DNA from: Kondoa subrosea
Taxonomy: Eukaryota
Assembly (NCBI GenBank): GCA_039545335.1
Contig: BCIN01000007.1
Coordinates: forward strand, 310,001-374,000
Length of the DNA stretch: 64,000 nt
Reading direction: 5' to 3'
Part shown: positions 53,557-61,126 of the stretch, piece by piece
Numbering within the stretch: position 1 is the first letter of the stretch
Layout: each line of letters opens with the position of its first letter
Notes under the pieces: generated by a model
What the model saw: only the letters and a program-made list of their open reading frames with translations
Database searches by the model: none
Told to the model about the DNA's origin: nothing
Position numbers and translations under genes: made by a program

Positions 53557-54167
53557 TCAGAGCTTCGCCTTCTCCTCGTCTGCAACCTTGCCGATTAAGT
53601 AGGGTTTGGCGGTCTTGTTGTAGACCTTCTTGCCTGCAAAGGAAATGAGTGAAAGCGGTATCAGCAGACAGAATACTCATTGTGGAACTGCCAGAAAGAC
53701 TTTTGGAGAGGAAGAGGAAGAGGAAGGGGAAGGGAAGAAGAGGACGAGAAGGAGTCAGCGAAACTTCGAGTGCTTTAAAGACCTCACCTTTGAAGAGTCC
53801 TTTCCGCATGAACTATAGAGTAGCAGTAGAGTCAGAACGATCAGCATTGTGGACATATCAACCCACTTGAGCAGGATCTTCTTTCCGCTGTTCAACATGA
53901 ATCAGCCCCTTTGACTTTATATCGTAGAAACTCAAACACACCCTGGATGTTCGCTGAGGAAAGGGGTCACATCGTACACTCCTCCATCGATAATAAGCCA
54001 AGCATCTTTCTCCGACTATCTCTAAGCGATCAGCTTGTTTCCAAACTTGCAATAAACCAGGCCAAACCTTGTGCTGTGAGACTTCGCTCTACATATGAGC
54101 GGGGCATCAGTACGTAGTAGCTGTAGACGTAAACCAAACAAACAGGCTTGAATGTTTTCTCAGACAT
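53557..54167 (-). CDS. Small soluble cytochrome b5-like heme protein (~86 aa, 7 exons) ending in PTS1 -AKL
   Basis: Spliced MSEKTFKP|SEVSQHK|SEKDAWLIIDGGVYDVTPFLSEHPG|GKKILLN|SCGKDSSK|SFWQFHS|KKVYNKTAKPYLIGKVADEEKAKL*. HPGG and a second heme His are present. The modelled last intron (53634-53680) begins ATGAGT. Confidence 0.88.
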
Positions 54168-54291: not shown

Positions 54292-57200
54292 TCACGATAA
54301 ATGGAAAGCCCCTGCAGTCGAAGTTAGCGGATGTTTCTTAAAAAGTCAAGTCAACCGGACCTTGACCCTCTTTCACTGCGACATCTAAGCGATCCCGAAG
54401 TACTATTGAACTCGAATATTCCGGCATTTTGACCTGTTTGCGAAAAGTTACACTCAAATCTGCAAAGAATGAGCTGGCAAACTCACATAATTCTGGCATG
54501 TCATAACACTGGGCAAGTATTCATCCGCATGATGACCTGGCTCGGGCAGCTTGCGAACGATAGTAAGAGATGGATGTAGAGATCGGAAGCCTTCATATCG
54601 TCAGCCAAAGTTCAACATCTGAGGTATCTAAACTCACCTCCAACAGGCAGGCGAGGACTACCAGTTGCGAAACTTAAGAATGCCCTCTTCTCTTTGTCAT
54701 CGTAGGAAGCCATCATCGAGACCATATCTTTGACCACTCGAGAATCCATTGAGTAACCATGATCAGCTCGAAGGCTGTCCGTTAAAGCTGAACACAGGCG
54801 ATCAGATTTGGCTTTCTGAAAGTTAAAATAACGACTTACTTTCTGCAGACCAATCTTCTGCATTGTTACCGAACAGCATCACCAGCTCTTCAGCCGAGAA
54901 GCAAGCTAAATCTTTGACTGGGAAGATTTCGCTGAAACCTTCTCTGAATGCTTGCACTTGCCTGTTGGTGATTGCATCAGCAATAAAGTTACTGAGTATG
55001 CGAAAGACACACTTAGCTACACCAGTCACCAGAGTGTACTCGATGACGAGCGAAATGTATTCATCGACGTTCTCAATTGTGACATCCACCTCTGAACCAT
55101 TGGATTTGAGCTCGATGTGAGGATAGCCGGGTAGAGTGAAGTCGAGAGACAAATCTTCTATCGAAGCATCTCTGAATTGAATGCTTTTGATGGCTTCGAG
55201 CTTCTCCTCTTCGGACTATTTTGACATGTAAGTATGCGCTATATACGGACAACAATGACACTTTACCAGAGAGTCACTGTTCTTTATCTCTTCTCGAGCA
55301 ATTACATACGCTTCCAGCTGATCAAGCGATTTGCCAAGGGTCGGATCAATGGTCTTTACGCTAGAGCAAGCTATAGGTAATTGTCGGTCCAGAACAAGCT
55401 TCATGAACGTTCTACTGAAAGGCAGGTCGATGATACGCGAGTCCATCAAGCTTTTAGCAATGAATTGACCCATGAAACGGAACATGGCGGTGATTTTGCG
55501 ACCACCTTCACATTGAGCATCGCCATCGAGTACAGGTGAAGGGAAGAGGCCACAAGGGTTGTCCACGTATAGCGAAGGATTTGCTGCATCGTCGCTACTT
55601 CGCCAAAGCTTGAGCTTCTTTAGACTGAATTCTCGCGATACCAATGCATCTGTCGAGGGGTAAGTATGCTGCGATGAGGTATAGCTCATCACACTGACAA
55701 AATTCCAAAGTAGGACCGAGACCAGTGCCAACTTCATCGAAGAATTCGATTCTAATGAATGATCTTAGCTGGGCGCAACGCAATTGCTTAAAAAAGAAAA
55801 AAACTCACTCCAGCATGGCTCTACTTTGACCATACAGCTCGAAAACCTTGAAAGCGGATTCTAGCAGCCGGTCTCTTGCTATCCTGACCTTTTGCCTTTG
55901 CAGGCGGCCAAGGAAGCTTAAGCTTTCGTCTCTTCGAGTTTCAGATCTTGCTTGACCAAGCCATTTCTGCATCAGGCGCGCATAGCCAAAGGAGGTGGAT
56001 TGAAGAAGAGAGAAACGACTCTCGAAAGGGAAGAGGAAGGAAAAGGATTGGGGTAGATCAAGAGCCCATTCTGGTAAGCAAGAACTGGCTACAATCATGG
56101 GTTCTTCGAGCTGGCGATTAAGCTTAGCAGTCAGCTTGTTGTTCACAAAAGCCGTTGCTGGTAAGCGAGTCGTTGAGTGATCGGTAGAAAGGATGTCTTG
56201 GAGATCGGAATTGAGGATGTGGAAAACGCGAAGTAGTTGCAATACCTCAGCTTGCCGCGTTCCAGGAGTGATAGAATCAGGAAGAATAGTATCTGGACTA
56301 GCTTGTCTAGCACTTTGAGGCTCGGGACTTGCTCGAGTCGCATCCAGAGGCGCCGGACCCGGAAGTTTCTTGAATCGCACGGTGTAAATGTTTGACCACA
56401 TCGTCCGACTTGTAGAAGAGTTGGTTCTGAGTTCATGTTGATGCACAGCGCCATATATTGTTGTATCATGCGAAACTTCAACATCGCCCATGTAGAATTT
56501 GAGATGGAAATCGCTGGGTTCTGTCTTGAGAGCAGCAGCATACGAGCCTTTGCCGCGAGATAAAGGTGGTTGTGAGGATGTAGCAGATTTGCCCATTGCA
56601 GGAGTTGCGACACGAGTCCCTCCGGGAGTATGCCCTTCTAGGCGAGATCCATCAGCACTTGGTTCAACGCTGACAGGCGGCGCTTCTTCGTCTTGCGCTT
56701 CTGCCGCTGTTTCATCAATCGCAGCATCTACCTCCTCTGCTGGAGTTGCCGTATTGCTTGTTGATGCTTTTGGAACTTGCGCTTCCTTCTCTTTATCCTC
56801 TTTCGCACTGAGACGAGAACTTCTGCGACGAGTGGACTTTTCTGCTGGAGCTGTGCTTGAACTTGGAGCAGCAGATGCGGATGTCGAAGTTGAAGGGGTA
56901 GGAGGAGCATTATCGCCTGCTAGTTCACCCAGACCTGCTGCTTGTGCGAAAGCAGCCAGAGCGCCCGACAGTCTAGACGATCCCGGATTGGCAGCAGCAG
57001 CAATTCGAGGACGCAGATAGTCGTTGAAGGCTTGGAACGTAGCAATGGCATGTATAGAGACGATCACATTGTTGCAAGATCGAGGAACACCTGCATCTTC
57101 GGAGATGAGCTTGAGTTTCAGTTGACGTGCAAGCATAGAAGCTGAGTTCCGTTCCGTAGCTCCTTGCAATGCAGTCACGACGTCGAACTCCTCCATCTTG

Positions 57201-60200
57201 CTCATCGAGTTTTGTAGTCTGGAAACAATGACGGAAAAAGCAATGCTCTTGCCGTTCGAAGGAGAAATGCCGAAGGCTTTTGCGAGAAGCTCTTGTCGAA
57301 AGAATGTGGTTACTGTAGTAACATCTCAACGAGTGGTGACACAATCACATCGAGCACAACTCACAAGACGAGGTAGAGTTTTCTTGACTGAAATGCAATA
57401 AGGCACTGACGAGACCACTTTCAATCATTTCGAAGCTAGAAAGCGGTTGTTCTGTGTTGGCGAAGAGTTCCACAATCGAATCCAATGTCTTTTCCACTGC
57501 TGAAAGGTTGGATTGAGTTGCGCTCTTCGAATGATCTTCCAATTCAGAGACGAGCATTTTGATCTTTTGTAAATCCTCGATTGCTTGAGAAGCAGATTCA
57601 CTTGAAGTCGAGCAATATCGATCACGAACGAATTTGGCGCGAACGGTATTCAAGTCTCTGAGGTGATCATCCGCTGAGGTCATTGCAGCCGCATTGCGTT
57701 CGTTCTGTCGCATGATCCGAGCAAGCATGGCTGCTTCTCCAGTAAGATCTTCGGCACTTGTCGTTGCAGTCTCAGTGTCTGCCGAGGATGGTACAGCTGT
57801 CTTCTTGGGTTGCAATGCCAGCATTGGACTTTCTGCTAACTCTTCGATGCCATGAAGAACACCTTCACGTCTGAACTGATAGTGAGATGTTTCTGGTAGC
57901 TTGACAAGGAAGAGCTCGACAAGCTGCAGAGCAGTAGTAAGGAGTGAAGGCTGATCTCGAGCTGCTAGAATTCCGCCAAGGAAACCAGCCATAGAAAGCG
58001 ACTAGCGAAATATCAGTCTTCGGCAGAAACCGTGCCGCTTTTGACTTACAGAAATAATTTCCTGCAGATCATCTTTGGGACAAAAGTGAGCAATCTTGCA
58101 GATACCAGTCATTGCTTTAGTCTTGATCACTACGCCAACACTCGCAGAGTAAACTTCGACAAGCATAGGAAGCATCAATGCAAAGAAACGTCGAATTGAT
58201 GTTTGACGGTCTTCGGACCCGTTGGAAAGCATCTCAATGCGACGGTCGTTAGGTTTCTGTTTCGGCACAGCAAGTGTATCTTGAGTCAAATCGATAGGCA
58301 TATCATCTGATCTCTCTTCAAGCTTGACTACTTCTTGCACATCTTCATCGTCGTCTTCGTCTGCTTCGGCTGCCGGAGTTGAAGACCCTTCTGTTGCTGC
58401 AGCTTCGGTAGACCCATTGTTGTCTTCAGTGACGGAAGTAGATGGACCTGCTTCGGCACGAACAGGAGAAGCCGTTTCACGTTGAGCCTTCTTCGACCTC
58501 CTTCCACTCCGACTGGCGTTTGGTTTGCTGCTGAAGATACCATCTGAGCAGACACAATCAATCCTATGCCGAGCAAGAAAGATAGCAAAACTACCTTTTG
58601 GCAAAGCTGGTAATAGTTCTCCGGCGAGCACGAGCGCTTCCTGAACTTGATCCTTTGGTCTGTGTACCAAATTCTGCAGAACAAACATATCATTCTCTTC
58701 GCGCTGCTTCTTGACACCTGAAATCTCTTCGCCAGTCGAAGGGGGAGAGAGACCGCCAAGAAGCGAATAAAGTGTATTTGCAATGTTCATTTCAATCAGA
58801 GCCATAGCCACTTCGGGACTCGCTCGAGCAGCGATACCAAGCATTCGAAGAACTTGTGTGTAAGTGGTAGCTCCAATTGTACTTGCGTTACCAGGCAGTA
58901 AGAGCTTCTCAATCGGTGCTAAGAGGTCGGATGTAAGAATAGCTTCCAATTTCTCAGGATAATGTCGATAAGAGTCAACAATCCGAGTGAGAGCTAAGCA
59001 AGCTTGTTCAACCACCCGTTGATCGGAATAGCTGAGGATGTTTTGTAGAATAGGAGTAATTTCTTGCACCATAGAGAAAGAGTCGACCGAAAGAGAGCGG
59101 CAACAATTAGCAGCAGCGGTGACTGCTGTACGCTGAACATTGGTGGAAAAGAAGTCGAGATAGGTGAGTAATGCAGTCAGACCACCTTCTCTTACTACAG
59201 AAGAAGGCATTTCGAGCGAAATCTTCTCGAGAGTCTTGCAAATGGGAAAGAAGGGGTCAGCTACAGTACAGCGAAGGTCACTACCACTCACGGAAAGCGT
59301 TTGTTCTGCCAGATCAATGAATTGAATCTCCAAGAGCTTCGCACACAGAACAGGAACCGCTCCATTGGCAACAACCGAATGGGACGATCCAGGCATAGCT
59401 TCCATAAGATTAGCCAAGCACCGACATGCAAGGAGCATCATTTCCATCAAGCTTTCTTCGCCGTTAAGCATAAGCAAAGGATCTTCGCCTCGCAGAATAT
59501 AGATGAGTTCTTTGCAGAAAGAATCGATGCTTAGCATTCCAGCTAAAGTATCCTCAGTACTGATGCTGAGTATTTCTGAGAGGTCTTGTAAAGCCATAAG
59601 TTTCATTGTTGGGTCAGCTTCAGGTGATCGATCTTTCAGGTTGTTCAAGATGGATCTGAGACGAGAGTTGAAGCCAGACATGATTCCAGCAAAGCCACCC
59701 ATACCAGCGTAAGCACTGAAAGGTTCATCCATAGCGGTATTACGACCAGAAGAAGGTTTAGAAGCAGGTTTGCCAGTTGTTTTGGCCAATGGTAAACCTT
59801 CATCATCGAATTCTCTTTCTTCGGGTTCATCTTGATCTGAATGACTTTCATCCTCTGGATCGTCAATCACTTGCTGAGCTGCCTTGTTGGTTTTATCGCC
59901 AACTTCCGCATTGAGGATTTCGTCATCTCGAACAATCATCTCTTCATCTTCGCTATCGCCAAGCATTTCACCTCCCTCTTCATCGAAATCATCAAACGCA
60001 TCAATCAGTTGAGCCATGTTCTCTTCTTCTTCATCAAGCATAAGATCACCATCCAAGATTGGTTCATCCACTTCCATTCTCACGTCCCCTTCAGCCGCTT
60101 CTTTGTCCGCATTCTGTTGCGCTTGCAAAGTAGTTAAATCTGAAGCAGCTGATTTCCTAGTTCTAGCTTTGACAGTTGAAGTAGTAGCGGCAGGAGCACA

Positions 60201-61126
60201 ACCATCTTTAGCCGAAGCAGAAGTAGCTGCTTGAGTTCTAGCTCTTCGCTTATTTGCTCGACCACCAGAGGGAGGAATCTCTTCAGCAGCTAAAGAAGCA
60301 GATGTAGAAGGTTCATCTAGTTCTGGCTTGATCTTGCCAGCTGGTGAACTTCCTCCTGATCCTTTACTTTTCCTACCCATCCTCTTCTTCTTCCGACTAG
60401 TAGTGACTTTAGTTTCTGATGGACGAGTACGAAGGTTATAAGCTCGAGAAGAATCTGTTGATTCTACTTTGCGTTTCTTGCTTGGACGAGAACTAGTTTC
60501 TGCTTGATCGACAGGTTCCGGTGAGATGGCCCTTCGTTTACCTTGAGCTTTGGCTGAAAGAGAAGGTTGTTGAGATGGTTGAGACGGCCCACCAAGCGAT
60601 CTTCGAGATCTAGAAAGCAAGGGCAATTTTGCATTAGCTATCTGTGTGTTCAAAGAAAGTACATTCTATAGCGCCGCAGATAAAAGAATGATACGAATCA
60701 AGAGAGCAAGCAATGGACAATACAGAGACGTGACGCAGGAAGACAAAGCCGGACAAGGCGAACAGATAATCAAAGAAGCGAGGGAATTCACCTTCTAGGA
60801 GCTGGTTGCTCTGACTCTTGAACTTGCTGAGGCTGAGCTACTTCACGTTTGCGCTTCTTGCTTGCAGGAGCTGCTGAAGTCGAAGTCGGCAGAACTTGCT
60901 CTGCTGCAGTATTGCTGACTCCTGACTTTCTCTGGCTTCGTCTAGGTAAAGGCTTGATAGGTTCTTCTGCTCTAGCGTGCTGTGATTGAGCTGTAGCGAG
61001 AGTAGAGACTGAAGCCACAGATTCGCTTTCAACCACGCTTGGGCTCGATTCTTCGGCGTCACTCAATTCAGAGGATAGGTCGCTTAAGGAATCTGATTCT
61101 TCTGGCTTGCTTCTAGCAACACTCAT
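54292..61126 (-). CDS. UFD4: HECT E3 ubiquitin ligase, Ufd4/TRIP12 family
   Basis: ARM region [96 protein letters not shown]. First exon starts [11 protein letters not shown] at 61126. Confidence 0.95.

Follow-up and report, generated by a model that had tools for sequence, protein, structure and literature searches.

A cytochrome b5 gene with an A at the first base of its last intron: most likely a disabled splice donor or a sequencing error

Introduction

Introns that begin with AT and end with AG are best documented in the U12 class, for which the available part of the survey by Sheth et al. (2006, PMC1557818) gives 20 cases in four species. For introns of the major, U2-type class the available text of Kannan et al. 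(2015, PMC4299874) describes the effects of an A at the first position. [quoted passage not shown] The same report deals with the AU 5' splice site of the Aspergillus TER1 gene, where an A-to-G change restores splicing, and with the TER1 intron of S. pombe, where G-to-A at position 1 blocked the first step. In the basidiomycete Ganoderma lingzhi, on the other hand, an annotation based on transcripts and corrected by hand contains 21 AT-AG introns among about 92,000 (0.0228%), according to the part of that paper available (PMC11590231). Frey and Pucker (2020, PMC7072748) found minor non-canonical splice sites to be rare and in part supported by RNA, and the accessible portion of their paper makes no mention of AT-AG itself.

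Cytochrome b5 domains have been reported from fungal peroxisomes as parts of larger enzymes. A fumarate reductase-b5 protein occurs in the microbody proteome of Penicillium chrysogenum (PMC7348727, available part), and the PfdA/B proteins combine an FMN dehydrogenase with b5 and carry a type 1 peroxisomal targeting signal (PTS1; PMC8478523, available part). Only such b5 fusion proteins, and no description of a free-standing peroxisomal b5 with a PTS1, were found in the non-paywalled literature.

A first-pass annotation of a 64,000-nucleotide stretch of fungal DNA (the window) had described, on the minus strand, a small cytochrome b5 gene whose PTS1 appears to depend on an intron with AT-AG termini, and had proposed that the odd donor, or RNA editing of it, switches the protein between a peroxisomal and a cytosolic or non-functional form. 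Here we have compared this gene with its orthologues, with the known intron classes and with a spliced relative. The junction described by the first-pass annotation is upheld, whereas a defect, in the gene or in its assembled sequence, and not a device, appears to be the most likely explanation.

Results and Discussion

Gene structure and gene product

The gene occupies positions 54167-53557 of the minus strand and, when spliced according to the AT-AG model, consists of seven exons encoding a soluble cytochrome b5 of 86 residues with the C-terminus AKL. Exon 1 (54144-54167) begins with the ATG at 54167-54165, contributes 8 codons and matches the N-terminus of the orthologue P0004 (see below) from residue 2 onward, and exon 2 (54068-54088) adds 7 codons. 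Exon 3 (53942-54015) encodes the b5 core as far as the HPG of the first haem-ligand motif, and is followed by exons 4 (53867-53887) and 5 (53788-53812). The last complete codon of exon 6 (53681-53699) is that of the second haem-ligand His, and one further base follows it (phase 1). Exon 7 (53557-53633) supplies the final helix and strand of the domain, the AKL codons (53568-53560) and the stop codon (53559-53557).

Introns 1 to 5 are all of the GT-AG type: intron 1 (54143-54089, 55 nt), intron 2 (54067-54016, 52 nt), intron 3 (53941-53888, 54 nt), intron 4 (53866-53813, 54 nt) and the pyrimidine-rich intron 5 (53787-53700, 88 nt). Their donors read GTTTGT, GTTTGG, GTGTGT, GTGGGT and GTGAGG, respectively, and a branch-like motif, CTGAT or CTGAC, is present in every one of them. 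Intron 5 is mostly a CT-rich run of about 50 nt followed by an unusual AAAAG acceptor; the other introns of the gene measure 47-55 nt.

Exon 3 alone scored 34.5 bits against the Pfam family PF00173 (cut-off 23.7), and a read-through of exons 3-5 (P0003), made by translating across the two in-frame introns and writing X for each stop, scored 35.3 bits against the same cut-off. The orthologue P0004 reached 81.7 bits, with residues 39-109 covering profile positions 2-73 of 74. These scores, together with the orthologue alignment, bear out the assignment of the gene to cytochrome b5. In the spliced model the first haem-ligand region reads HPGGKK, and the His residues of both haem motifs are present and invariant in our orthologue alignment A1 (H37 and H60 of the orthologue P0007); we take these two residues to be the axial haem ligands. 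The best solved relative of P0007 is 4b8n (E 1.9e-14). The Cyt-b5 domain is whole only when intron 6 is removed exactly.

Intron 6 and its A-first donor

Intron 6 (53680-53634, minus strand, 47 nt) runs from ATGAGT to TTTGCAG, with an A at the first base where a G is expected. The exon 6/7 junction on the minus strand reads TTC CAC A / ATGAGTATTC...CTGAT...TTTGCAG / GC AAG AAG GTC, placing this last intron between the second haem-ligand His and the next Ser codon. Re-reading of the assembled sequence gave the same junction, the same 47-nt extent and the same AT-AG termini as the first-pass annotation, and likewise a T on the plus strand at 53680, that is, an A on the coding strand at intron position +1; the dinucleotide at 53680-53679 is AT in place of GT.

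Apart from position +1 the donor is a perfect GTGAGT, and the other features of a U2-type intron are present, namely an AG 3' end, a CTRAY branch motif and a short, fungal length. The candidate branch site is the CTGAT at 53660-53664 (minus strand), whose putative branch A lies 27 nt before the 3' splice site. The remark that GTGAGT donors are common in the window has only a loose check behind it: the hexamer occurs 46 times, both strands together. Three candidate introns of the neighbouring HECT ubiquitin ligase gene, picked by eye from a permissive enumeration, begin with GTAAGT, GTGAGT and GTAAGT.

Introns of the U12 type are marked by a donor of the ATATCCTT or GTATCCTT type and, not far from the 3' end, by a TCCTTAAC branch box. 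We rejected this class for intron 6, the donor of which is ATGAGTAT and which has no TCCTTAAC-like box near its 3' end; the 3' region, TTCCTTTGCAG, is devoid of branch adenosines. Also rejected was a U2-type AT-AC intron, since the intron ends in AG and hand inspection revealed no in-frame AC end. One-base shifts of the boundaries were likewise followed by hand, and neither these nor the AT-AC reading keep the frame with known termini. Judged by its sequence, intron 6 is a U2-type intron with A at +1.

Among described introns, the U12-type AT-AG introns thus share the termini of intron 6 and differ from it in donor and branch box (PMC1557818, available part). A closer likeness is seen to the Aspergillus TER1 AU 5' splice site, with which intron 6 has in common the A at +1, the AG end and the short fungal U2-type architecture. 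However, TER1 is a non-coding RNA whose cleaved 5' product is functional, whereas a functional b5 product needs ligation (PMC4299874, available text). The AT-AG introns of Ganoderma lingzhi have the same termini and come from a basidiomycete, but they differ in being supported by transcripts (PMC11590231, available part). Two window-wide surveys for A-first introns, which relied on open flanks, a branch motif and codon usage as the score, had no discriminating power: GT itself was barely above background, with 14 donor sites in one of them versus 1-8 for the other 15 dinucleotides, among which AT had 6.

A 7-nt inverted repeat, AATGAGT/ACTCATT, can pair the donor with the 3' part of intron 6. 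The ACTCATT at 53644-53650 (minus strand) is complementary to the AATGAGT at 53681-53675, giving a 7-bp stem across the donor in which a G at +1 would turn the second pair into a G-U wobble. The minimum free energy fold of a 121-nt segment had a z-score of -0.07, and 84 of 200 shuffled sequences folded at least as well.

These data bear on the proposal that A-to-I editing of the +1 A creates a GU-like IU donor, on which splicing and the peroxisomal b5 would then depend. Inosine is read as G, and the edited site would become a consensus donor; moreover, A-to-I calls have been made from RNA-seq in Microbotryum, a genus with close homologues of the window b5 (2026, PMC13608869, available part). 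In that group editing is claimed, with no mechanism defined in the available text of the report (PMC13608869). Fungal editing sites as described in the available part of PMC11156358 belong to the sexual stage of filamentous ascomycetes and prefer a U at -1 and a hairpin loop, but the base at -1 is here an A, the +1 A lies in the 7-bp stem and not in a loop, and the fold is no better than that of shuffled sequence. The closest named homologues of the gene are, in addition, from Pucciniomycotina, i.e. basidiomycetes, and the literature searched yielded no example of a donor created by editing in a fungus. The editing idea of the first-pass annotation is therefore at odds with the ascomycete-type preference, and we regard it as very improbable.

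Orthologues and a spliced relative fix the exon 6/7 junction

A protein search with P0003 produced 4 candidates, 3 of them with E <= 1. One of these 3 was P0004, a 117-residue open reading frame (ORF) on the 2,045-base metagenome contig L001, and a search with P0004 in turn returned 10 proteins among 12 candidates, including proteins from Microbotryum, Meredithblackwellia, Cyphobasidiales, a cystobasidiomycete and Acaromyces. With the stop-to-stop ORF of 39 amino acids (P0001) as query against protein representatives, the sole hit was an irrelevant repeat protein (P0002). The window protein shares 87% of its residues with P0004 and 57-69% with the next 24 matches listed.

Three alternative models of the window gene were aligned to seven orthologues (P0004, P0006, P0007, P0008, P0009, P0010 and P0011). 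Across the exon 6/7 junction all seven share F-H-S-[KE]-K, free of insertions, and all end in [AS]KL. Only the AT-AG model matches them, giving the conserved end ...FHSKK...IGKV...AKL. L001 is unbroken at all six intron positions, and is thus a spliced, transcript-like sequence; its junction reads TTT CAC AGC AAG, which is the join of the AT-AG model. A metagenome scan detected only L001, in spliced form, and L002, which matches without interruption at 39% identity.

On this evidence the exon 6/7 junction is more than a chance arrangement, being fixed independently by 7/7 orthologous proteins and by the spliced L001, in agreement with its placement by the first-pass annotation. Because the junction is conserved both in the orthologues and in the spliced sequence of a relative, a functional protein would need the intron to be exactly there.

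L001 resembles the window only in the b5 exons and the 3' UTR. Along its length (1-2045) a 480-residue membrane-protein ORF (157-1599) comes first, with the b5 frame about 100 nt further on; this frame lacks an ATG at the point of the window gene's start codon, and the upstream part of the contig is without counterpart in the window. A chimeric assembly or a read-through transcript could explain the arrangement, as could a different gene order. Public models of two Microbotryum proteins, P0011 (M. silenes-dioicae) and P0012 (M. saponariae), contain insertions at the places of window introns 3 and 4 and a further one inside the LIG strand, and these look like retained or misplaced introns. A tiny, intron-dense b5 gene seems to be hard for automatic annotation.

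Alternative isoforms lack the end of the b5 fold

The alignment also allowed us to assess the isoforms that would result if the AT donor were not used. Translation and alignment showed, as had been claimed, that the GT four nucleotides downstream (GTATTC, 53676), joined to the same acceptor, leads to an unrelated, frameshifted tail that ends in ALIA and has no PTS1. The prediction that a retained intron ends the protein after HNEYSVC was also confirmed, the stop falling seven codons past the His. The only in-frame GT option, as stated by the first-pass annotation, is a GTCTGC donor (53669) combined with an AAG acceptor (exon from 53628), which adds two residues found in 0/7 orthologues.

That the cell uses one of these two GT donors, GTCTGC to AAG (in frame, two residues longer) or GTATTC to CAG (a new 29-residue tail without PTS1), has the attraction that both introns would be GT-AG and that the former leaves the reading frame beyond it, and with it the AKL terminus, intact. 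However, none of the seven aligned orthologues has a two-residue insertion or an alternative tail. The CTGAT motif lies just 1 nt past the GTCTGC hexamer and the first CAG would have to be skipped, and the frameshifted GTATTC tail removes the end of the Cyt-b5 domain. We consider the use of either GT donor unlikely, albeit not to the same degree as editing.

The domain boundaries are also at variance with a switch in localisation. In P0004 the part equivalent to exon 7 starts at the Ser that follows the second His, and the Pfam match extends to profile position 73 of 74, in the LIGKV strand, which belongs to this exon 7 equivalent. Exon 7 thus codes, besides the PTS1, for roughly the C-terminal third of the b5 domain, and isoforms produced by intron retention or from the GTATTC donor, lacking the last helix and strand, would be predicted to be non-functional and not relocated. 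The proposed choice between peroxisomal and cytosolic b5 by means of the odd donor is not supported for this reason: the exon that carries the PTS1 also carries the end of the domain, and the alternatives are truncated or frameshifted. We have consequently abandoned the localisation-switch reading, as the alternative isoforms would be broken proteins and not a working cytosolic b5.

Exon 7 has been under purifying selection

Nei-Gojobori counts between the window gene and L001, a comparison in which the two lineages are not separable, gave pN 0.103 and pS 0.615 for the whole gene (omega about 0.09). For exons 1-6 the values were pN 0.098 and pS 0.548, and for exon 7 in the AT-AG frame, a stretch of only 24 codons, pN 0.123 and pS 0.791. 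These values indicate that exon 7 is under purifying selection in the AT-AG frame. Since pN is far below pS in exon 7, this frame has been read over almost the whole period since the lineages of the window gene and L001 separated. As to the A at 53680, the test says only that it is either recent or harmless.

[quoted passage not shown] Such a cut would follow the sequence logic of the AU 5' splice site of Aspergillus TER1 (PMC4299874, available text). The 5' fragment would, however, encode a truncated b5 with neither a stop codon nor a poly(A) tail, and the conserved exon 7 argues that selection sees the ligated product. We find this explanation hardly credible.

A fungus-wide family of small b5 proteins with a PTS1

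PTS1 signals follow the consensus [SAC][KRH][LM]. The AKL end of the spliced model fits this type, and the PTS1 was accordingly described as canonical with good reason. Of 7,992 candidates, 722 proteins matched a profile built from six orthologues (A1) at E <= 1e-5; listed were the best 120 of the 722. For the C-termini, 121 of 127 proteins were tallied; left out were P0001 and P0003, which are parts of the window gene itself, P0002 as irrelevant, P0005 as a fragment and, as plant proteins, P0013 and P0014. Among these best listed homologues the ends were AKL in 71, SKL in 30, ANL in 2, SKI in 1, SKM in 1 and other in 16, i.e. 101/121 end in AKL or SKL, and many of the 16 other endings belong to longer or visibly mis-modelled entries. 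The names among the best 120 of 722 include Pucciniomycotina, Ustilaginomycotina, Ascomycota, Umbelopsis and chytrids.

The window gene is, on the strength of these comparisons, an unremarkable member of a family, spread across the fungi, of soluble cytochromes b5 of about 84 residues that end in a PTS1 ([AS]KL). The PTS1 itself is accordingly a conserved trait of this family, no peculiarity of the window gene. Small fungal b5 proteins with an [AS]KL end, such as those of Microbotryum lychnidis-dioicae (MVLG_05053) and Meredithblackwellia eburnea (P0007, P0008), belong to the same class of 83-86 residues and share with the window b5 the HPGG, the FH followed by S, the C-terminal IG-x-V strand and the PTS1. 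The window b5 is 60-69% identical to the named Pucciniomycotina proteins, compared with 87% to P0004. It differs from the P0007/P0008 type in that the window copy needs an A-first intron, the orthologues being known here as proteins.

As is predicted for the window b5, the b5 domain of the ascomycete fusions is sent to peroxisomes by a PTS1; there, however, the b5 is fused to an enzyme, whereas the window family is free-standing (PMC7348727, PMC8478523, available parts). The free-standing PTS1 b5 family may be worth more attention than the donor anomaly that led to it.

A defective donor as the preferred explanation

We consider it somewhat better than an even chance that a GTGAGT donor has suffered a G-to-A change, either as a real null or leaky allele or as a base-call error, and a defect is the most likely reading of the locus when set against a regulatory device. 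The change would be a genuine variant of the strain or haplotype, or else an assembly error at this base. Given a real A, the spliceosome would, by analogy with the published introns, either fail at the first step or cut the 5' splice site and then be unable to ligate the exons, and little or no full-length b5 mRNA would be expected. The leftover isoforms, from the retained intron or from the GT four bases downstream, would lack the end of the b5 fold and be non-functional.

The defect is favoured by the published block of ligation with A first and G last (PMC4299874, available text) combined with a donor that is otherwise consensus. The gene contains no other stop or frameshift, and this, together with the purifying selection on exon 7, fits a single recent hit. 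Private splice-site variants and sequence errors are, in our own estimate, not rarer than functional AT-AG introns. Against a defect speaks that the gene is otherwise perfectly intact, which is equally expected of a functional AT-AG intron, and that some AT-AG introns may be spliced in fungi, if the 21 of Ganoderma lingzhi are a guide (PMC11590231, available part).

A genuine U2-type AT-AG intron, with a real A and the 47 nt removed by the major spliceosome, perhaps inefficiently, would yield a normal peroxisomal b5. The intact gene and the in-frame conservation of exon 7 agree with such an intron, as do the good positions +2 to +6 (TGAGT), the CTGAT branch motif, the CAG acceptor and the typical length. 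The 21 cases in the corrected annotation of Ganoderma lingzhi provide a precedent (PMC11590231, available part), but A at +1 with G last is the very combination reported to block exon ligation (PMC4299874, available text). We regard a genuine AT-AG intron as possible though rather doubtful. The fuller claim, that a real A goes together with intron removal efficient enough to provide the conserved peroxisomal b5, so that a Pucciniomycotina fungus would have a natural functional U2-type AU-AG intron, is put forward still a little more tentatively.

What follows from the locus depends on these readings. Should the A be erroneous, or mark a private null allele, the finding amounts only to a caveat on the gene model, which automatic predictors will mis-annotate. 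If the AU-AG intron is functional, then the combination of A first and G last that blocks splicing in yeast, human and Aspergillus introns would be tolerated here, and the weak donor might set the dosage of b5. An intron truly spliced in this form would offer a clean natural test of how the fungal major spliceosome handles A at +1 with G last, with a conserved protein of 86 residues as a simple read-out.

Genomic context

The window has a G+C content of 45.6% and contains no N. No second b5 copy was found within its 64,000 nt, and Rfam gave no match to it. The neighbours on the same (minus) strand are a UFD4/TRIP12-like HECT ubiquitin ligase, whose ORF pieces lie between 60665 and 54338, and, at 53013-52627, a carbon-nitrogen hydrolase. 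The HECT ubiquitin ligase gene (54338-60665) shows Pfam matches to TPR_TRIP12_N and HECT on successive ORF pieces, and its end lies some 170 nt upstream of the start codon of the b5 gene.
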